DNA of 24,253 nt, from the NCBI GenBank assembly GCA_048882385.1, contig JBHLRQ010000043.1, forward strand, positions 1 through 24,253, read 5' to 3'. A program made the translations under genes and the position numbers. The notes beneath the pieces were generated by a model that saw only the letters and a program-made list of their open reading frames with translations, did no database searches and was not told the origin of the DNA. Of the stretch, positions 3,788 to 11,155 are shown one piece after another (the first letter of the stretch is position 1; each line of letters starts with the position of its first letter). Source of the stretch: Candidatus Thorarchaeota archaeon. GTDB taxonomy: Archaea > Asgardarchaeota > Thorarchaeia > Thorarchaeales > Thorarchaeaceae.

Positions 3788-5317
3788 TTATGTAGGGTCC
3801 CTCTCTCTAATCAAACCTTGGCTTGATATCCATGCTAAAATTAGCATGTTGAGTAAAAGTATTACAAGGAATAAATCTCCTTGATAGAAATACTGGAAGA
3901 ACAGACCTCCTATATATGGGCCAACAGATGCACACAACCAGACGATAAACCAGAAGACGCTAAGAATTTTGGAAGTATCCTGTCTTGGAAGACTTTTCTG
4001 AATTATTATGAGTAGTAAAAGGTACCATATCGAATCGTTTAGAGACTTCAATACTATTGCAAGGAATGGTGTTGAGAAGACTGCTCCAAGTCCAATCATT
4101 ATTGATTCAGCGTTGTTGACTATTGATCTAGGTGCCCAGTAAGGAATCATTGGAGATATTACAAGCATCATTGCAGAGATTGGTATAATGCAATAGACTC
4201 CCAAAGCCAACTTCTTCAAACTGTAACGATCGGACAATCTACCCGCTCCCAACAAGAGAGGAACCGAAACAAGTATTGTCACAAGACTCATGATGGTTAT
4301 GCCAGGTATCTCAATTCCTACCACTTCATAGATGTAAATGTATGAACCAAATTTGAACAACGAATCGCTAATGGAATCAATAATGACAACTGCAATCATA
4401 CCTGGTACTGTTTTCATGAGCAATCCCACAGCTCTTTTATTGTCTTCAAAGAACGCTCTTGGTAGAGAAACACCATCTCGTTTTATTTCTGGATCCTTTC
4501 CCTTTAGGAAAACAGCTCTAGCAATTGCAGCTGCAATGAGACATATCCCGCCTATTAGAAACATTAGACGTAGACTTGGTTCAAACCCAAGAAGTGGTGT
4601 CAATATGACGAATGAACCAAGTGTGACAATCCCTAGTAATCGTCCAATCTGAAAAAGCGAAAGTCCAAGTCCACTGTGTTTCTTGGGGATATTGTCCATG
4701 ATATATGCTGAAGATCCTCCTTTGAATATCTCCATGGTGGCTCCTATCATTAGAGCGATGAAGATCCAAGTGAACTCAATAAAAATTCCAAGAACTAAAT
4801 TATAAGCAGCCATCATGAACATGGCTATTACCGAGAGATGCTTTCTGTTTACAACATCTCCAACATACCCCCCACCCAGACGTGAAATTGCAGCTACTGC
4901 ATTGGATATAGATATGATGGCTCCAAGTGTAACGTAATCACCGGGATATAACTCGAGAAAGTAGAGATTGAAGAATAATCCCATGTAGCTAAAGGCACTG
5001 AAAATCCATGCAGTTGCCAAATAGACTGAATAATTTCGCCAAGAGAATATGATTTTGATAGAGTCAATCAGACTAGGACTTTCCTCTTTTATTTCATCAA
5101 GTTGGTCTTGGATTCTATCAAGTTTATGTCTGATCTTGTCTAGTTTTTCTTTTTCCTCTCTTATTTTGTCAAGTCTTTCTTCCTTTTCTTTTTCCCTCTC
5201 TTTTTCTCTCTCAGATTCTATCAAATCTTCCCAAGTGAGAAGATCAGCTTCAGTTTTAGGAGGTCCACCATCCAAGTCCCTTTCACTCCTTTCATCAGAA
5301 TGTTGGATGAGCTTCAA
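3788..5317 (-). CDS. MFS transporter with charged N-terminal coiled-coil extension
   Basis: About 12 hydrophobic segments; motif A-like GGYVGDVVNRK and AGRLSDRYSLK; ~85 aa E/K/R-rich N-terminus; TTG start uncertain. Confidence 0.88.
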   Translation of the reverse strand: MKLIQHSDERSERDLDGGPPKTEADLLTWEDLIESEREKEREKEKEERLDKIREEKEKLDKIRHKLDRIQDQLDEIKEESPSLIDSIKIIFSWRNYSVYLATAWIFSAFSYMGLFFNLYFLELYPGDYVTLGAIISISNAVAAISRLGGGYVGDVVNRKHLSVIAMFMMAAYNLVLGIFIEFTWIFIALMIGATMEIFKGGSSAYIMDNIPKKHSGLGLSLFQIGRLLGIVTLGSFVILTPLLGFEPSLRLMFLIGGICLIAAAIARAVFLKGKDPEIKRDGVSLPRAFFEDNKRAVGLLMKTVPGMIAVVIIDSISDSLFKFGSYIYIYEVVGIEIPGITIMSLVTILVSVPLLLGAGRLSDRYSLKKLALGVYCIIPISAMMLVISPMIPYWAPRSIVNNAESIMIGLGAVFSTPFLAIVLKSLNDSIWYLLLLIIIQKSLPRQDTSKILSVFWFIVWLCASVGPYIGGLFFQYFYQGDLFLVILLLNMLILAWISSQGLIRERDPT

Positions 5318-5352
5318 TATTATCAGGTCTCCAAACTGGTTGAAATGTGTAC

Positions 5353-5545
5353 TGCCGTTCCCTTTTGGACCCCTCCGAACCGAAGTTCGGATTAAATTTG
5401 AACGGCATTAGAACAAGAAGCAGTAGTTGCTGAGGCTATATAGACGCCTCACTTTTCATACATACTGTATTGAATGTACTACTCCGGGGGTGAATCTTTT
5501 CCTTCGTCCCCCGGGAATACTCCGGGTCCATTGCCTTCACCAAGG
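5353..5545 (-). ncRNA. Putative structured RNA element between the 83-aa ORF and the MFS gene
   Basis: Stems 5353-5360/5400-5407; 5374-5380/5385-5391 with a cUUCGg loop on the minus strand; 5431-5436/5446-5451; 5484-5490/5508-5514; long-range complement 5366-5372/5524-5530. Confidence 0.5.
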
Positions 5546-5548
5546 TCA

Positions 5549-5800
5549 CTAATCAAACACTAGCACTTTAACGTCGCCGTCCGCAGTCGGGATGGCCATG
5601 AGTTTGTGTGTGCAGATGTCCGCTGTGACCACAAGACATTCTGGTGGAGCATTCGCAGTGATTAGATTTCTTACAGCTAGCTCGAGGTTGATTGCTACAA
5701 GTCTAACAGTTTCTGAATCAGTGAATGGATCCACCTCTCGCCAATCATCTGGCTGAGTGAAGTCTCCGAATATTGGTTCGATTTTTTGTGTTCGTATCAT
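5549..5800 (-). CDS. Small hypothetical protein (83 aa)
   Basis: GGAGGA 10 nt before the ATG; protein-like composition; ends TAG TGA. Confidence 0.75.
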   Translation of the reverse strand: MIRTQKIEPIFGDFTQPDDWREVDPFTDSETVRLVAINLELAVRNLITANAPPECLVVTADICTHKLMAIPTADGDVKVLVFD

Positions 5801-5848
5801 TTTTCGTTTTTCCTCCGTTTTGCGGGTATGCCGCCATTTCTTTCATTA

Positions 5849-5923
5849 TTACCATGGTTCATTACTACCAGGTCCGTTGTCATGTGGGCTCATTGTGGTT
5901 TTCTCCTCCATTGTCGGTTTCAT
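5849..5923 (-). CDS. Putative micro-peptide MKPTMEEKTTMSPHDNGPGSNEPW (or 14 aa from ATG 5893)
   Basis: In-frame ATGs at 5923 and 5893 are each preceded by GGAG(T/G)A at 10 nt spacing; ends in three consecutive stops, TAA TAA TGA. Confidence 0.4.
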   Translation of the reverse strand: MKPTMEEKTTMSPHDNGPGSNEPW

Positions 5924-6130
5924 TTTTGTTCTCTACTCCAAGCGCAAGGTTGGTATGCCGGATTTCTCCAGCTCTGCTCCAAGCCTTTGGGGGGTTTGGT
6001 TTCATCGTTTAGCTTCTCTCTCTAGAAGCTCACACTGCAGAGTTGTTGTAAGAAACCCCTACCAACCGTGTCCAGCAACGAAGTAAATCGACGCTGTGCG
6101 CACCTTGCAGTCGAGTCCGATTGACCTACT

Positions 6131-6154
6131 ATCCACTGATTTGTATCAGTGAAT
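6131..6154 (-). other. Hairpin immediately after the 40-aa ORF stop
   Basis: Minus strand ATTCACTGAT-ACAA-ATCAGTGGAT, 10 bp including one G-U pair; no U tract. Confidence 0.5.
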
Positions 6155-6276
6155 CAGAATGGTGTCGGATCTTCGCATGGTGGCTGCACGACGGTCGAGA
6201 TACCGCGTACAACACCGATTGATAGCAACTCCAATGCAGCACGATTCTTCGTCATGCTCTCGTAAAGAGTTCTCAT
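6154..6276 (-). CDS. Small ORF, 40 aa, MRTLYESMTKNRAALELLSIGVVRGISTVVQPPCEDPTPF (45 aa if started at ATT 6291); not in the ORF track
   Basis: Manual translation; perfect GGAGGTGA at 6304-6297, 5 nt before an in-frame ATT. Confidence 0.55.
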   Translation of the reverse strand: MRTLYESMTKNRAALELLSIGVVRGISTVVQPPCEDPTPF

Positions 6277-6330
6277 CCGGTCTGTCTTAATCGCTTTCAC
6301 CTCCTTCGATTGCTGGAAGGTTGATCGGGG

Positions 6331-6454
6331 TCACACTGTGTAGATTCACTTCCTATTAGCACACGGTCTAGTACCTGTATCTCAATGCAGGTACCTTCCC
6401 ACGACTAACTAGGCGTAGGACTAACCTGTCCTTTGAGCTCATTCTACAGTGTGA
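6331..6454 (-). ncRNA. Structured 5' leader / riboswitch-like candidate
   Basis: Closing stem 6331-6339/6446-6454 with extension; internal hairpins 6371-6380/6385-6394 and 6417-6421/6428-6432; begins ~25 nt downstream of a TATA-like box. Confidence 0.5.
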
Positions 6455-6479
6455 AACCAAGTTAACGGGCTCAAAATCG

Positions 6480-6487
6480 TATAATAA
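6480..6487 (-). promoter_or_regulatory. Putative TATA box for the minus-strand RNA/micro-ORF unit
   Basis: TTATTATA; the predicted start (~6457) coincides with the base of the leader stem. Confidence 0.45.
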
Positions 6488-6510
6488 GGCCGCGTTGTAT
6501 TACGTAGGTC

Positions 6511-6530
6511 CATTAGACTTAGTTCTAATG
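6511..6530. promoter_or_regulatory. Palindromic candidate operator CATTAGA-N6-TCTAATG
   Basis: Perfect 7-bp inverted repeat in the divergent intergenic region next to two HTH genes. Confidence 0.45.
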
Positions 6531-6672
6531 ACTCTATAGCCATAATCTAGTGAAATCCTCCGCGGCTTGATGATTTTACAAATGTGGCAGGTACAAACAA
6601 GACGAGCCACCAAATTGATAACTAAACATCTGGCCATATTACCTGGATATTGTGCTAATATAGGTGTTAGAA

Positions 6673-7746
6673 ATGCGGCTCCTGGGATCTGGTGAATTAC
6701 GGCTCCTACGTCGATTGGTGATAGATCCATCACTTCGTCAAGCAAGTCTTGCACAAGAACTCAATGTGACACGATCTGCAATTAACCAAATTTGGCACAA
6801 ACTAAGCTCCGATTTCGATGCAGCAATTCGAAGTAATCTTGATTATGGAAAGCTTGGACTTCGATTTGTATTTGGGTGGGTGAGTGAGGGTAAGAGTCTG
6901 AATGTGCTATCTAAGTTCTCACAATGGCTTCATTCTAATCGATTCGTTACTCGGCTTACTAAATCAATAATGTCTTCGACAATGGACACACGGGTATACT
7001 ATGAAGCAATCCTTCCTATTGGCAAACAGTATAGTTGGTTTCGAAGCCAGATGGAGAGGTTCCGTAAGAAACCCTACTCTCTCAAGGTAGACTATGAGGT
7101 TGTTTCGAGTGTGGCGAATCATATGAACCTCGGTCTGTTTGATGGTGCGCAATGGGGCTTTAGTAATGACTTTCGTCTTGAAGCCTCAATTGGTGCGGCG
7201 AAACACTATGTTGATGTGCTTCCTGTCTTAAGCACAGTTATCCAGAGTGAAACAAATCCTGTCGATCTTCATGATTTAGTAATCGCAGCAGCACTGGAGG
7301 CTAATTACCATGTCACTGCAACTGAGCTCGCGAAGAAACTAGAAATGTTGGGATTGAAACCTCTTTCCGGTAGGACTCTTCGACGTCGCTTGGCTCAATT
7401 TAGAAAATCTTTGACTATACCTTATGTGAACATATCCCACATTGGACTCAATCAAAAGATAGTAGTCTGCTTGAAAGAAGAAAATTCGTCCAAGTCCGCA
7501 ATTAGCAGATTGCTTCATGCCCAGGCCAGTACTTTTCCTAAAGCTCGTGTCTTGTCTGGAACGAACATGACAGTTATCGATTTCGAAACCCCTGAGTATG
7601 TTGACTGGGTGACAATGTCTCAAATTCTATCCGGCATGATCGATAACACCTCAGAGATATGTACATTTATAGCCAAAAATCATGAAATAGACAAACGACT
7701 TGAGAGTGTGGTGTCCCACCTTGCATCACAAGCGCCCTCCGAGTAA
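6673..7746 (+). CDS. Tandem (2x) Lrp/AsnC-like wHTH + RAM-like regulator
   Basis: HTH1 QASLAQELNVTRSAINQ followed by the Lrp linker LDYGKLGL; HTH2 ATELAKKL...SGRTLRRRL followed by ISHIGL; AGGTG precedes ATG 6673. Confidence 0.8.
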   Translation: MRLLGSGELRLLRRLVIDPSLRQASLAQELNVTRSAINQIWHKLSSDFDAAIRSNLDYGKLGLRFVFGWVSEGKSLNVLSKFSQWLHSNRFVTRLTKSIMSSTMDTRVYYEAILPIGKQYSWFRSQMERFRKKPYSLKVDYEVVSSVANHMNLGLFDGAQWGFSNDFRLEASIGAAKHYVDVLPVLSTVIQSETNPVDLHDLVIAAALEANYHVTATELAKKLEMLGLKPLSGRTLRRRLAQFRKSLTIPYVNISHIGLNQKIVVCLKEENSSKSAISRLLHAQASTFPKARVLSGTNMTVIDFETPEYVDWVTMSQILSGMIDNTSEICTFIAKNHEIDKRLESVVSHLASQAPSE

Positions 7747-7760
7747 TGCAATAGCTGGCG

Positions 7761-9239
7761 ATGAAAAAATTGAACAAAACAGGTTCAAGGCTTGAGGAAA
7801 CTGTAGTAGATATCAGTCCATCCAAGAGTCTGTCATCGCAAATACAGACACCATTTGATGATCTCATTCCAGAATCCAACGAACCATCAGCTCAGTTTTA
7901 TCTTGATGCAATGAGAATCTATCTCGGACTGTGTACAGGTTCATTATCAATGGAAACTGCAATCAAAGCAACGGACATTCTGAAAAACAACCCTGAATAT
8001 ACAATCTGTCCTACCAATCCTGCGATGATTCCGATAAACGCTCGATACAAATCTCGAATACTTGACAATCTAAAGACTTTGAAAAAATTCAATCTGATAA
8101 CACGAGACTCGATCAAGTCTGCATACAGCTTTGCTTTCTTGAGCGAGGAAGGACCAATGAACAAAACCGATTACGAAGCCCTTCTTCTTTTCGCTCAAAA
8201 TCCTGAGATTTCACTCGTTGAGGCATCCAAGACCCTCGGTATAACCCCTAGGACTATTGCAAGAGCAGTCAAACGTCTAAGAGATCGAAACGTCTTGCGC
8301 TTCTCTGCTCTTCTTGATTATACCGCTTTCAATCTCCAATCAGTTATGCTCTTCTTTACGATGAACGACAAAGCAGACTGGTCGGACGTTGAACACTGTA
8401 TGACAAAATACCCTTTCACAAAAAGCATTTTGAAGACTACAATGACCGATCTTGGTTATGTCACATTTCTCATTCCAAATATCGCAGAAACTCGCAATGT
8501 GTTTCAACAATCAATTCGCGATATCTCTCAGGAATTCTTTGATTATGCTAGTCTTCACTATCAAACTGCAGTCGGTGCAAATTCAAATCTACAACTTTAC
8601 AATGTTGATGAGTGGATATTGCCTAGATATCTTAGACAGGGTGATACCGATTTCGATGCAAGTCCATATGAATCCCCGCCATTGATTCATTGCAGAGGTC
8701 CAAAAGAAGAGTATAATCAATATGACTTGGCCATTGCAGCTCAAATTCAAAGCGACTCCCGTGCGGGGCCAAGCAAAATCAGTAATAACCTAAGAATCAG
8801 GGGTTTCGATGTAGAAACGAGAAGAATTGCCAAATTGGATAGGAAACTCAGAGAGAACCACTCACTCATGTCGTATATCCTGTTTGGTGGTTTAGGACTG
8901 TCATCTAATTTCTGTTTCGAGATTATCTGCAATGACCATTGGAAACAGCGAATCTTGCATCTTGTCGCACAATTTCCGTGGGTAATGTATTATCTATCAA
9001 ATAGAGGAATTATAGTTTGGACAATGACGCCAGGAAATCATCAAGTTGATTATTATCAGATGTTCCGAACTCTCGAACAAAATCCAGATGTGGAAAAGGT
9101 TCATCCAATAATGACAATTGCTCAAGGTGGTTCAAAGGCAGTGACGGACCTAACAAGAGGTCTAAGATTGGAGAATGGAAAGTGGTCGATTAATATCGAT
9201 GATGTCGATCTGACATATTGCTTACCCGAACTAGAATAG
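7761..9239 (+). CDS. Tandem (2x) Lrp/AsnC-like wHTH regulator with ~130 aa N-terminal extension
   Basis: HTH SLVEASKTLGITPRTIARAVKRL + LDYTAFNL; second degenerate repeat DSRAGPSKIS...FGGLGL. Confidence 0.8.
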   Translation: MKKLNKTGSRLEETVVDISPSKSLSSQIQTPFDDLIPESNEPSAQFYLDAMRIYLGLCTGSLSMETAIKATDILKNNPEYTICPTNPAMIPINARYKSRILDNLKTLKKFNLITRDSIKSAYSFAFLSEEGPMNKTDYEALLLFAQNPEISLVEASKTLGITPRTIARAVKRLRDRNVLRFSALLDYTAFNLQSVMLFFTMNDKADWSDVEHCMTKYPFTKSILKTTMTDLGYVTFLIPNIAETRNVFQQSIRDISQEFFDYASLHYQTAVGANSNLQLYNVDEWILPRYLRQGDTDFDASPYESPPLIHCRGPKEEYNQYDLAIAAQIQSDSRAGPSKISNNLRIRGFDVETRRIAKLDRKLRENHSLMSYILFGGLGLSSNFCFEIICNDHWKQRILHLVAQFPWVMYYLSNRGIIVWTMTPGNHQVDYYQMFRTLEQNPDVEKVHPIMTIAQGGSKAVTDLTRGLRLENGKWSINIDDVDLTYCLPELE

Positions 9240-10145
9240 GGTTGATTTTGCTAGGGTTAATTTTTCAATGCCTTTCCTTGATAGGCCAATTGGAGGTCCA
9301 AAGACCACATTCGTGAAGCCAATGCTCTTCAGTTCTAAGACATATTCCTGAAGCTGCTTCACAGATCCACAAAATGCAAACTTCTTCAACACCTCTTCTC
9401 CTAAGGAATTTATGACTTCACTATCTATTCTTCCTCTTTCCTTCAACAGCAATCGCGCATCCTTCAACACTGAACTCAAACCAAAATGTTCTGCAACAGA
9501 TTTCCCAAGTCCAACAGCGACCATTGCAGCAGAGTGGCTTATGTCAAGGTCATCTCTGAATCTTTCACATGGTCCAATTTGAACAGGTGGAAACAGTCCC
9601 AATTGGAAACCTGCTCTACTCTTGTTCTTGACTTTATTTGCAGCCCATCGAGCCATCTCCAAGTCCGAATAGTTGAGAAGAACACCATCTGCGTCAAGTG
9701 AAACCTCAATCATTTTTGGACCCTGTGCACCTACGAACACACTGCAACCATGACCTGTTTCAAGCAAACCCGCCTTTATTTCTAACAGCGAATTTTTGAT
9801 TTTCTCGACTATTTTTTTGGGTGCGTGTGAAATTCCAATACTCTCAAGCGCAAATCGGTCTCCTGGTCCAAGTAGTAAATCAAATCTATCTCCATGACTT
9901 TCAATCAATGTGGTCATGAATTGCACAATCTGAAATGATGAATAAAGGAGAGGACTCACTAATCCGACACCTATTCTGCAGCTACTAGTCTTTTTTGCGA
10001 TTGCTGCTGCCACTGCTGGTGCATACCTGAGTGCAGGGAAATCTGTTATCCAGACTTGGTCCATCTCTCCCTCGTCTGCAATAATCGCCTTTTCTAATGT
10101 CTTTGAGATGGAATCTCGGACATTTAGTGCTATTCCCCATTTCAT
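9231..10145 (-). CDS. LLM-class (luciferase-like, Mer-like) oxidoreductase
   Basis: VWITD, IGVGLVSP, LGPGD, GAQGPKM..ADGVLLN, VVFGPPIG motifs as in Mer; ATGA overlap with the upstream paralogue. Confidence 0.85.
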   Translation of the reverse strand: MKWGIALNVRDSISKTLEKAIIADEGEMDQVWITDFPALRYAPAVAAAIAKKTSSCRIGVGLVSPLLYSSFQIVQFMTTLIESHGDRFDLLLGPGDRFALESIGISHAPKKIVEKIKNSLLEIKAGLLETGHGCSVFVGAQGPKMIEVSLDADGVLLNYSDLEMARWAANKVKNKSRAGFQLGLFPPVQIGPCERFRDDLDISHSAAMVAVGLGKSVAEHFGLSSVLKDARLLLKERGRIDSEVINSLGEEVLKKFAFCGSVKQLQEYVLELKSIGFTNVVFGPPIGLSRKGIEKLTLAKSTLF

Positions 10146-11155
10146 GGATTGTCTCTCCTCGAATTGGCCTCCTCAAAGAGCTCTGTCGTGGCAGCTCTCC
10201 AATCACCAGAAAAGGGCGGTCCAATCACAACCTCGGTTGCACCAATTTCCGCCAATTTCTCAAACCGATCAACCATGTGTTCTTTGCTTCCGCTTATTGA
10301 AAAAACATCAAGTAATTCATCATCAACATACTCAGCTCCCTCTTTTGGGCTTGAAGCTGCAACTGTCTCACGAATTCTCTCAATTTGTTTAACATCCACA
10401 TTCAACATATCTATGACTGAGTCTGGAGTGTCCGCGATTACTAATGCAACAACTCGCCTTGCAACTTTATCCTGTGTCCCTTTGAATGTAGGAATAGTCG
10501 GCACCCAAACAACCTTTTCCACTGACCCATGTTGTCTACCCACCGTTTCTGACGAATCATCAACCATTCTTATTGCATTTCGGAGATACTCGAAGGGTCC
10601 TGATAGGATTACACCATCTGCAATCCTCCCTGCGAGTTTAAGCATCTGAGGTCCTCTGACTCCAAGAAAAATGGGGATTCTACTCGGATTTACTTCGACT
10701 AGCTTAAAGTTTGTGAGTGAGAAGACCTCACTCTCTGCCACAACAGTTTCTCCTGCCCACAAACCGTTCAGAGTTTGGATCGTCTTATGAAGTTCAGTGA
10801 CAGGTTTCCTGATATTAATTCCATGTTTTTCGAGATCCTGAATTCCACCTATGCCCAGACCATAGGCAAATCTTCCCTCACCCATCTCTGATAATGTGAA
10901 ACCTACCCTTGCAAGAGTGGCAATATTGTGAACAGTTACAGGGATTATACCTGTACCTACTCTTGCAGTCTTGGTCTGCAGTAGAACATTCGCTGTCAGT
11001 ACAAATGTTTCCTGACCAAGACCAATATCTTCGCCTATCCAGATGCTTTTGGCCCCAAGTGCGTCCGCATTTTGCGCAATCCAATCTGTTGCGCTCACTC
11101 TCATGTTTGTCGTGATACCAATGCTGACACCATACATTCTATTCATCTCTCTCAA
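10142..11155 (-). CDS. LLM-class (luciferase-like, Mer-like) oxidoreductase
   Basis: IWIGED, VGTGIIP, GRFAYGLGIG, IPIFLGVRGPQMLKLAGRIADGV; true start probably 11146 or 11137. Confidence 0.88.
   Translation of the reverse strand: MREMNRMYGVSIGITTNMRVSATDWIAQNADALGAKSIWIGEDIGLGQETFVLTANVLLQTKTARVGTGIIPVTVHNIATLARVGFTLSEMGEGRFAYGLGIGGIQDLEKHGINIRKPVTELHKTIQTLNGLWAGETVVAESEVFSLTNFKLVEVNPSRIPIFLGVRGPQMLKLAGRIADGVILSGPFEYLRNAIRMVDDSSETVGRQHGSVEKVVWVPTIPTFKGTQDKVARRVVALVIADTPDSVIDMLNVDVKQIERIRETVAASSPKEGAEYVDDELLDVFSISGSKEHMVDRFEKLAEIGATEVVIGPPFSGDWRAATTELFEEANSRRDNP

Follow-up and report, generated by a model that had tools for sequence, protein, structure and literature searches.

A 1.3-kb stretch of a Candidatus Thorarchaeota genome in which hardly any open reading frames (ORFs) are visible is a folded messenger RNA (mRNA) encoding three small genes, two of which are unannotated and end in the same proline-aromatic tail. 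The stretch belongs to a window of 24,253 nucleotides (nt), the whole of the DNA analysed here (positions 1 to 24,253 of contig JBHLRQ010000043.1), taken from the assembly GCA_048882385.1 (256 contigs, 3.70 Mb in total, 95% completeness). On the minus strand, between positions 6487 and 5549, a conserved TATA box and a leader of about 165 nt are followed by three translated small ORFs, here called p45, p14 and p83. A preliminary description of the window had singled out this nearly ORF-free 1.3 kb as being organised on the minus strand, and the conserved TATA box, leader, small ORFs and RNA helices reported below bear it out.

The region 5320–6660 contains short ORFs only, and its G+C content is 0.478 versus about 0.41 in the flanks. 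No Rfam covariance model reached its gathering score anywhere in the window; with E values of up to 10 allowed, 5320–6660 yielded just two matches (E 2.8 and 4.6), both far under the gathering scores, and a tRNA search of the same region found none. The DNA of the region is retained at 66–87% identity in 22 of the 24 other genomes of the genus, while none of 16 sampled genomes from other genera matched at the DNA level. The comparative set comprised 73 fetched loci, including overlapping copies of the same genomes; L001 is the window's own locus, and L056–L073 are 18 loci from other genera of the family, which contains 16 genera. An interrupted or recoded gene at 5320–6660 was ruled out by six-frame reading and alignment: in 18 loci of the genus, the spacers between the ORFs carry indels and lack codon periodicity.

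The most strongly conserved of the three genes is p45 (6291–6154, minus strand; stop codon TGA at 6156–6154), which ends in CEDPTPF-stop. In the alignment of the 18 genus loci, read in a 40-amino-acid (aa) frame, its entropy at the first, second and third codon positions was 0.07, 0.05 and 0.70, respectively, with 4, 5 and 29 variable columns of 40. The 40-aa product was found by tblastn at 92.5–100% identity in 21 of 23 loci, two of them cut by contig ends. The preliminary description had noted a Shine-Dalgarno (SD) sequence followed by a 40-aa ORF, and the codon-position entropy confirms this ORF as a translated gene; its start, placed there at an ATG at 6276, probably needs revision. In 31 of 32 loci, GGAGGTG is followed at a distance of 6 nt by an in-frame ATT, ATA or ATC codon (hereafter AUH), located 15 nt upstream of that ATG; locus L061 is the only one with ATG at this position. 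In-frame stop codons occur just upstream of the AUH codon in six loci (L014, L017, L065, L068, L072 and L073), and the downstream "M1" is not ATG in 12 loci, which have ATA, ATC, AAA or CTG instead. The codons between AUH and M1 encode I-S-[TAS]-[DE]-x and change synonymously. Given the conservation of the AUH codon, the upstream stops, the non-ATG M1 codons and the synonymous changes, p45 most likely starts at the AUU at 6291–6289, which would give a protein of 45 aa. The SD sequence GGAGGTGA (6304–6297, minus strand) lies at a spacing of 6 nt from the AUH codon, and, counted from M1, GGAGG is located at −28/−29 in 29 of 32 loci, the other three having it at −32/−33.

Identity of p45 across the family ranges from 55 to 98%, with a mean column identity of 80%, and its conservation exceeds that of p83, the MFS protein and the regulators encoded in the same loci. 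In the tail CEDPxPF-stop, C34, P39 and F40 (40-residue numbering) are invariant in 22 sequences, and E6, T9, L15 and L17 are further invariant residues. The centre of the protein is moderately hydrophobic but includes Arg and Gly and does not clearly qualify as a membrane helix. No NCBIfam match was found, a profile search against PDB gave a best E value of 0.58, and two versions of the 40-aa sequence had no letter-for-letter match among about 15 billion predicted proteins. A p45 profile detected the gene in 68 of 85 other genomes of the family, representing 14 of the 16 genera, whereas the 315 genomes searched from other Asgard families yielded no match. There was nearly always a single match per genome, and the few second matches were mostly at contig ends.

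The second ORF, p14, encodes MSPHDNGPGSNEPW-stop (5893–5849, minus strand) and is preceded by the SD sequence GGAGGAG at 5909–5903; it was recognised from the alignment of loci. An ORF ending in P[FWY]-stop occurs 32–73 nt before the p83 start in all 18 loci representing the 16 genera, and in 39 of 39 when 21 loci of the window's genus are included. An SD-led ATG start could be picked for 36 of these 39 (L059 has no ATG, and L061 and L068 are ambiguous). The preliminary description had proposed repeated SD-ATG micro-ORFs here; one of them, 5893–5849, is conserved, but a run of several is not. The 37 distinct forms of p14, 35 of which have 11–15 aa, consist of D, E and P to 49% overall. Many of them begin with M[DN]P, and they end in [DE]PxP[WF], EP[WFY] or close variants such as QPW and SPF; p14 keeps its ends and its composition, while the middle varies in length and sequence. 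In locus L064 (G360:C18), the p14 unit is duplicated between p45 and p83, as MSNPNPISPDPCPW and MSNPNPISPDPTPW, each with an SD sequence. In the window's genus, the p45–p14 spacer exceeds that of other genera by about 130 nt and contains ATG ORFs that are not conserved (e.g., 6006–5878, MKPNPPKAW...), which may be a decayed p14 copy.

Both p45 and p14 have a tail of the form [DE]P(xP)[FWY], located directly before the stop codon, and it is the best-kept part of both. In the tail, different Pro codons are used for unchanged residues, which indicates that the peptide itself is under selection. The pattern P.P[FWY]-stop occurred 27 times in 234,904 six-frame codons of 18 family loci, and nearly all of these matches, as read by eye from the listing, were p45 or p14. 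In 7,395,604 codons of the whole genome, [DE]P.P[FWY]-stop was found twice, in p45 and in one frame without any Met. Among 1771 SD-led ATG ORFs of 8–30 aa genome-wide, the tail is present in one, namely p14, and a search of the genome for a regulon revealed no further ORF with the tail. PPW-stop was found in none of the loci, the tails being PxP[FW] or EP[WFY].

The third gene, p83 (5800–5549, minus strand; SD sequence GGAGGA at 5816–5811), is annotated in other genomes as a hypothetical protein. Its entropy at the three codon positions was 0.37, 0.15 and 0.98 in the 18 genus loci, tblastn found the 83-aa product at 70–100% identity in 22 loci, and 87 clusters in a large protein collection contain it, almost always called "hypothetical protein" where named. 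The 83-aa ORF of the preliminary description is accordingly a real gene. A p83 profile detected one copy in 74 of the 85 other family genomes, covering 16 of 16 genera, and nothing in the 315 genomes of other Asgard families; many of the genomes missed by the p83 and p45 profiles are incomplete. The small-ORF unit is specific to one Thorarchaeota family. The structural model of p83 has a beta-alpha-beta-beta-beta fold, for which Foldseek gave no significant match (best E 0.24); many of the top matches were Roadblock, LAMTOR or longin proteins, at E 0.24–1.1 and template modelling (TM) scores of 0.33–0.45. No match to Pfam, NCBIfam or PqqD was obtained, and the best E value in a PDB profile search was 0.87. 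In the ESM Atlas, the weak leads were fragments resembling asparagine synthase (scores 0.84–0.90, with 75–116 of 256 features shared). Prediction of a p83–p45 complex returned a score of 0.01 with the verdict "no answer", which speaks neither for nor against an interaction. Past the p83 stop, at 5535–5480, two overlapping GC hairpins (CCCGG...CCGGG and CCGGGG...CCCCGG) are present in 11 of 17 genus sequences and absent from the other subclade; they share a middle segment and hence are mutually exclusive.

The transcript carrying these genes is predicted to be extensively folded. RNAalifold analysis of 16 sequences of the genus revealed three long-range helices, A, B and C, that join the leader to a conserved block after p45. 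The 5' strand of helix A, TCACACTGTAGA (6454–6443, minus strand, as for all strands given here), lies at approximately the predicted transcript start (near 6457) and was seen in this genus only; it pairs with TCTGCAGTGTGA (6041–6030), 113–124 nt past the p45 stop, over 12 pairs, with 97.9% of cells paired in the 16 sequences. Helix C is formed in the window fold by CCCCGATCAACC (6330–6319) and GGTTGGTAGGGG (6067–6056) and has six pairs, 100% of cells being paired; four of the pairs vary on one side only. Helix B, with eight pairs, joins CCAGCAAT (6316–6309), which ends a few nt before the p45 SD sequence, to GTTGCTGG (6079–6072 in the window fold), and one CG-to-UA change on both sides is present in three sequences. 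Over the long-range helices, 97.8% of cells are paired, compared with 24–49% when the partner is slid by 1–3 columns. The 447-nt domain as a whole (6456–6010) folds at −172.5 kcal/mol (z −7.67), and none of 100 shuffled sequences folded as well. The minimum-free-energy fold of the window contains all three helices, the B/C helix reaching the first bases of the SD sequence. As the leader pairs with a stretch 35–125 nt after the p45 stop, the domain encloses the SD sequence, p45 and the hairpin next to its stop. The multibranch RNA of about 125 nt suggested in the preliminary description is part of a larger fold dominated by long-range pairing with the stretch downstream of p45.

In other genera, a helix occurs at the same relative place, joining sequences 25–70 nt before M1 to those 35–115 nt after the stop, but other sequences form it; the genus-specific pairs include CCAGCAA/TTGCTGG, AGGTAATCGGA/TTCGATTACCT, GTATGACAATC/GATTGTCATGC and ATCCATACCA/TGGTATGGAT. 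With ungapped-helix scoring of this SD-adjacent helix in 16 loci, leaders matched to their own downstream stretch scored 21.8, versus 16.8 for mismatched combinations. The Fisher combined p value of 1.7e-9 overstates the case, since the windows were picked post hoc and the loci are related. Gapped RNAduplex comparison of whole leaders with whole downstream stretches was uninformative, as the window's own locus alone stood out (z −3.86, 0 of 200 shuffles). Local structure is also present at the stop codons. The hairpin following the small ORF in the preliminary description was recovered directly 3' of the p45 stop (6153–6132, minus strand; z −3.0 in the window). The region of this stop codon is paired in most loci of the genus, with stem sequences that differ between subclades, and in several other genera the bases near the stop pair with a leader segment instead of forming a local hairpin. 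A short GC hairpin (5834–5822, minus strand) lies between the p14 stop and the p83 SD sequence, with p 0.11 in the window. RNAalifold gave no pairs for this spacer, because the short hairpins were misaligned, and per-sequence folding was used there.

The TATA box of the small-ORF transcript, TTATTATA (6487–6480, minus strand), is part of the block CTTATTAT, which is invariant in 16 of 16 genus sequences, in agreement with the TATA-like box proposed at this position; TATA-like boxes were seen by eye at a similar distance in loci of other genera. About 25 nt upstream of the TATA box, the operator-like inverted repeat TTAGA-N6-TCTAA (6513–6528) forms the core of the palindrome 6511–6530, likewise proposed earlier, with arms CATTAGA/TCTAATG. 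The pattern YTAGA-N6-TCTAR occurs once in the window, against 0.11 expected, and 9 of 100 shuffles contained it at least once. It was found in 27 of the 73 fetched loci, where not every match was mapped to its position, and in none of the 18 loci L056–L073. In L002, some 120 nt separate the match to the palindrome core from the TATA box downstream of it, and in L030 the match falls outside the intergenic region. The three subclades of the genus all have YTAGA-N6-TCTAR, or a repeat resembling it, 5' of the TATA box, with differing spacers. Another motif, GKCC-N3-TGTTWAG, is located just upstream of the start of the divergent gene R360 (6622–6635, minus-strand reading GGCCAGATGTTTAG). With one occurrence in the window against 0.04 expected, and exactly one in each of 52 loci out of 73, 11 of which belong to the set of 18 (L056–L073), it is kept more widely than the palindrome upstream of the p45 TATA box. 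In the inspected loci it lies between R360 and p45, and it could be the promoter or operator of R360.

Downstream of p83 lies the gene of an MFS transporter (3788–5317, minus strand), identified as such in the preliminary description and assigned here to Pfam MFS_1 (E 2e-16; residues 105–467; 60.2 bits against a cut-off of 33.4). Ahead of residue 105, the protein carries about 100 additional N-terminal aa that are strongly charged, being rich in Glu, Lys and Arg, and its start codon is TTG or GTG, 9–10 nt past a conserved GGAGA. About 115 nt upstream of the MFS start, a TATA-like box is embedded in the 5-bp inverted repeat GAGGC-GTCTATATA-GCCTC (5450–5432, minus strand), which is kept in 17 genus sequences and is probably a separate and possibly regulated MFS promoter. 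No conserved structure was found 5' of the MFS gene, where RNAalifold gave eight pairs and no compensatory changes, and the second structured RNA postulated there was not recovered. In locus L060 (G346:C1, a single-contig genome), p45, p14 and p83 are followed directly by the gene for an endonuclease III (EndoIII)-like protein, with no MFS gene at that position. Taking this locus together with the putative MFS promoter, the MFS gene is a neighbour and not a necessary part of the small-ORF unit, which the preliminary description had as feeding it.

On the opposite strand, two genes, R360 (6664–7746, plus strand) and R492 (7761–9239, plus strand), lead away from the small ORFs. They had been described as duplicate genes with helix-turn-helix (HTH) and RAM domains, and this fold is supported by the R360 model, a match of R492 to the Lrp regulator FL11 and weak paralogy. 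The AlphaFold2 (AF2) model of R360, built with 25 orthologues, has a predicted local distance difference test score of 86 and a predicted TM score of 0.85; it contains two HTH and two beta-alpha-beta-beta-alpha-beta modules, and together with Foldseek it indicates a tandem double Lrp/AsnC-like protein (HTH-RAM twice). The top Foldseek match was NirDL (4ch7; E 4e-9, TM 0.53–0.60), followed by single Lrp/AsnC regulators with about 150 aa aligned each; matches to PH0061, PF0864 and ST1022 had a probability of 1.00. R492, a paralogue of R360, is extended by about 125 aa at its N-terminus and matches HTH_24 (E 8e-8), and its residues 132–239 match FL11 (E 4e-5). Residues 59–269 of R360 align with residues 185–390 of R492 at 20% identity (E 0.001), i.e., the paralogy is weak. 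In Pfam searches up to E 10, HTH families alone matched R360 and R492, with no match to AsnC_trans_reg or siroheme decarboxylase, and the NCBIfam matches to LysM and Lrp were far under the cut-offs. Even the role of R360 and R492 as regulators is putative, since the closest solved fold to R360 is an enzyme, NirDL. As candidate regulators, they might act on the palindrome 5' of the TATA box and so contribute a transcriptional level of control. Beyond R492, at 9231–11155, are two adjacent luciferase-like genes whose best matches are models of Mer (5,10-methylene-tetrahydromethanopterin reductase), at 103 and 174 bits against a curated cut-off of 276.

The gene order Mer-like, R492, R360, then divergently p45, p14, p83, MFS, EndoIII-like and GT4 is kept in 20 genus loci wherever the contig reaches; p45 was found in 18 and R360 in 15 of the 20, all misses being at contig ends. 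With the exception of L060, which lacks the MFS gene, the order is also kept in the 18 family loci. A test of synteny had been proposed for the linkage, which is indeed kept in the genus loci and across 16 genera; however, the test does not discriminate, as the whole block is syntenic. The EndoIII-like, GT4 and other housekeeping neighbours are equally syntenic, and synteny is therefore no proof of functional coupling. Of the proposed peptide/RNA unit facing two double-Lrp genes, the unit itself holds, with purifying selection on the small ORFs, conserved long-range structure and kept gene order, but no specific tie to the regulators or the MFS gene emerged beyond block synteny. As to expression, 22 RNA-library runs from 13 studies hold 5–20% of the sampled sequence words. 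RNA-library contigs from four runs of four studies, three of them at 99–100% identity, cover 5779–6438, i.e., p45 with its leader and downstream stretch; these contigs carry no information on strand, ends or expression level and may include DNA carry-over. The lack of RNA-contig cover for p83, MFS and R360 is no sign of silence.

We favour, at somewhat less than even probability, the reading that p45 and p14 are cis-acting leader peptides coupled to an RNA switch, together forming a translation-sensing unit. It is founded on the weak start codon, the SD sites, the peptide-level selection on a tail placed at two stop codons, the D/E/P-rich composition of p14, the pairing at the stops, the fixed distance to p83 and the fold enclosing p45. 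In such a unit, a TATA-driven minus-strand transcript would carry the SD-led p45, p14 and p83, and the acidic proline tail of p45 and p14 would cause ribosomes to pause, to abort translation or to be slow in terminating. Depending on how long a ribosome dwells at the stop, the pairing near the stop and the long-range helices would remain closed or open up; in this way, the dwell time would govern initiation at the weak AUH codon as well as p83 expression, and perhaps that of the MFS gene. Candidate signals include Mg2+, polyamines, the activity of aIF5A or a small ligand. In its most specific form, which we consider rather improbable, the proposal is of an Asgard nascent-peptide sensor in which an AUH-started 45-codon ORF and a D/E/P-rich 13-codon ORF would read elongation and termination on the acidic proline-aromatic tail (through aIF5A, polyamines or Mg2+) and relay the outcome through the long-range mRNA fold to p83 and the transporter, as an archaeal counterpart of the logic of the AZIN1 upstream conserved coding region (uCC) and MgtL.

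Several observations weigh against a cis-acting sensor. We infer every step of the mechanism, stalling, abortion and switching alike, and co-transcription of p83 and MFS with p45 is likewise presumed, the RNA contigs being unstranded and spanning 5779–6438. Of the 26 long-range pairs in the genus, 16 never vary, seven vary on one side and one on both sides. The hairpin at the p45 stop has a z score below −1.64 in just 10 of 23 loci, that between p14 and p83 has p below 0.05 in 22 of 39 loci, mostly of this genus, and no alternative fold hiding the SD sequence of p14 or p83 was found. The stop codon varies among TGA, TAG and TAA, and the tail contains no two consecutive prolines, unlike PPW or the EF-P/eIF5A motifs. 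Moreover, p45 was not found in 17 of the 85 family genomes and is missing from two of the 16 genera, while p14 persists, which implies that the two ORFs need not act together. Finally, p45 is conserved over its whole length, which a small protein that folds or binds a partner would explain no worse than a leader peptide would.

The last point leads to the alternative that p45 and p14 are stable trans-acting products whose tail is a binding motif for a common partner, the RNA fold merely tuning p45 output or mRNA stability. We regard this as possible, if on balance doubtful; the full-length conservation of p45 and the conjectural nature of stalling place it close behind the cis-acting sensor. 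Candidate partners would be p83, the RAM domains of R360 and R492, or the MFS exporter in a peptide-signalling loop. Such a role would account for the conservation of all 40 aligned p45 residues above p83, MFS and the regulators, for the operon-like array with p83, for the interchangeability of F, W and Y as the last residue, as expected of a bound side chain, and for the absence of the tail elsewhere in the genome; a small-peptide gene divergent from regulators also resembles the layout of Rgg/SHP-type systems. However, the receptors of Rgg/SHP-type systems are TPR proteins, and RAM domains are known for amino-acid ligands. The regulators at this locus have the HTH-RAM fold instead of TPR peptide receptors, p14 is acidic and proline-rich, and neither peptide has a signal sequence or a hydrophobic stretch of the kind found in pheromones, so that the locus resembles neither Rgg/SHP nor RRNPP systems in these respects. 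The variation in length and sequence of the p14 middle would be unusual for a receptor ligand, and the weak start, the stop hairpins and the fixed 32–73-nt spacing to p83 are left unexplained. A mixed arrangement, with p14 as the cis leader of p83 and p45 as an independent small protein gated by the long-range fold and the weak AUH codon, appears unlikely but has points in its favour: p14 occurs without p45 in L056, L059, L062 and L070, the helices enclose p45, abut its SD sequence and partly cover it in the window, the predicted transcript start coincides with the 5' strand of helix A, and the RNA contigs of four studies cover p45 with its leader and downstream stretch. Binding of a protein or ligand might operate the gate; alternatively, the fold might, with its paired 5' end, serve mRNA stability or processing. 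Yet no ligand, protein partner or processing site has been identified, and no bulge-helix-bulge motif was seen by eye, the B/C helix having a 3-nt bulge on one strand only; the shared tail would also become a role-less leftover of common descent, despite being the best-kept part of both ORFs.

Two further explanations appear much less probable. The small ORFs could be precursors of a modified peptide or cofactor, with p45 and p14 as substrates, p83 as a recognition or chaperone protein and the MFS protein as the exporter, as two small ORFs with a conserved C-terminal core beside a transporter gene and the weak language-model tie of p83 to fragments resembling asparagine synthase might suggest. 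We consider this very unlikely, given that the conserved block (Lrp-like, Mer-like, EndoIII-like, GT4) contains no modifying enzyme, that p83 has no significant structural, PqqD, Pfam or NCBIfam match and that the unit of L060 lacks the MFS gene. Least probable of all, to the point of being barely credible, is a locus similar to type I toxin-antitoxin systems, in which p45 would be a toxic membrane peptide silenced by fold-back of its mRNA, as in hok. The long-range 5'–3' fold that encloses p45 and touches its SD sequence, the weak start codon and the moderately hydrophobic centre of p45 would suit this scheme. Type I toxin-antitoxin loci are usually mobile and patchy in distribution, whereas p45 is present nearly always in one copy at a fixed position in a syntenic core across 14 genera, under strong purifying selection; in addition, its centre with Arg and Gly is not a clear membrane helix, and no antisense RNA element was seen.

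Whichever role applies, annotation misses two of the three genes, although p45 is the best-conserved gene of the neighbourhood across an Asgard family. A single locus here combines a near-universal non-AUG start, a genome-unique tail on two ORFs and a long-range fold whose sequence is genus-specific while its pairing is kept. To our knowledge, no such nascent-peptide sensor has been described in archaea, and searches of listings and abstracts on archaeal arrest and leader peptides and on Asgard small ORFs turned up nothing describing this locus. If p45 and p14 do act as cis-acting sensors, this would be a first case of nascent-peptide regulation in archaea, in the lineage closest to eukaryotes; if they act in trans, they would represent a new family of peptides with a tail motif and offer a handle on the orphan protein p83.

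Among known systems, the Lrp/AsnC family and NirDL bear on the regulators. The combination of winged HTH and RAM that characterises Lrp/AsnC proteins is found twice in R360 by AF2 topology, and in R492 it is indicated by the HTH_24 and FL11 matches, but no profile of the AsnC-type ligand-binding domain matched either protein up to E 10. R360 resembles the siroheme decarboxylase NirDL in its fused double module and in fold (E 4e-9), but differs from NirDL and Lrp proteins in that identity is only 11–20% and no family profile matches.

For the small ORFs, the closest analogies are leader and arrest peptides. TnaC and SpeFL are short conserved upstream ORFs whose last residues matter and in which ribosome occupancy at the stop codon controls downstream genes, and the leader of about 34 aa in SpeFL is conserved along its whole length. 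The conserved C-terminal residues of p45 and p14 are likewise selected at the amino-acid level, and p14 is a short translated ORF ending at a conserved distance upstream of a gene. In these respects, p45 and p14 resemble TnaC, SpeFL and PepNL, for which arrest at the stop codon is reported (PMC11890864). They differ from these three in having no sequence similarity to them and no fixed stop codon, and archaea have no Rho-dependent or terminator-type read-out.

For MgtL, sensing through EPDP and intrinsic ribosome destabilization (IRD) has been described (bioRxiv 10.1101/2021.02.02.429294): N-terminal sequences rich in D/E and P abort translation, and this is counteracted by a tunnel-filling chain of about 30 aa. 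Like MgtL of mgtA in Salmonella and E. coli, p14 is very short, SD-led and rich in D, E and P right after Met; it precedes the next gene within a long structured leader, and a transporter gene is located further on. There is no sequence relation, however, and in p14 and p45 it is the P-aromatic-stop at the C-terminal end that is best kept, rather than the N-terminus; the archaeal host lacks Rho and has another ribosome, and it is an 83-aa protein, not the transporter, that is encoded directly downstream. With respect to IRD, the locus offers a natural contrast between its two ORFs, since p14 is short, but in p45 the tail follows 38 residues.

The eukaryotic uCC of AZIN1 combines an AUU start with C-terminal Pro-Pro-Trp stalling, which feeds back on the use of the weak start (PMC9082881). 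The tails of p45 and p14 lack consecutive prolines, no polyamine gene is linked to the locus, and initiation of p45 is SD-led, so that queuing on a scanning 5' leader is inapplicable as such. Points in common with the AZIN1/ODC uCC are the near-cognate AUH start of p45, present in 31 of 32 loci, its PxPF-stop about 45 codons on, and the (P)xPW or EPW end of p14; the likeness lies in design rather than in descent.

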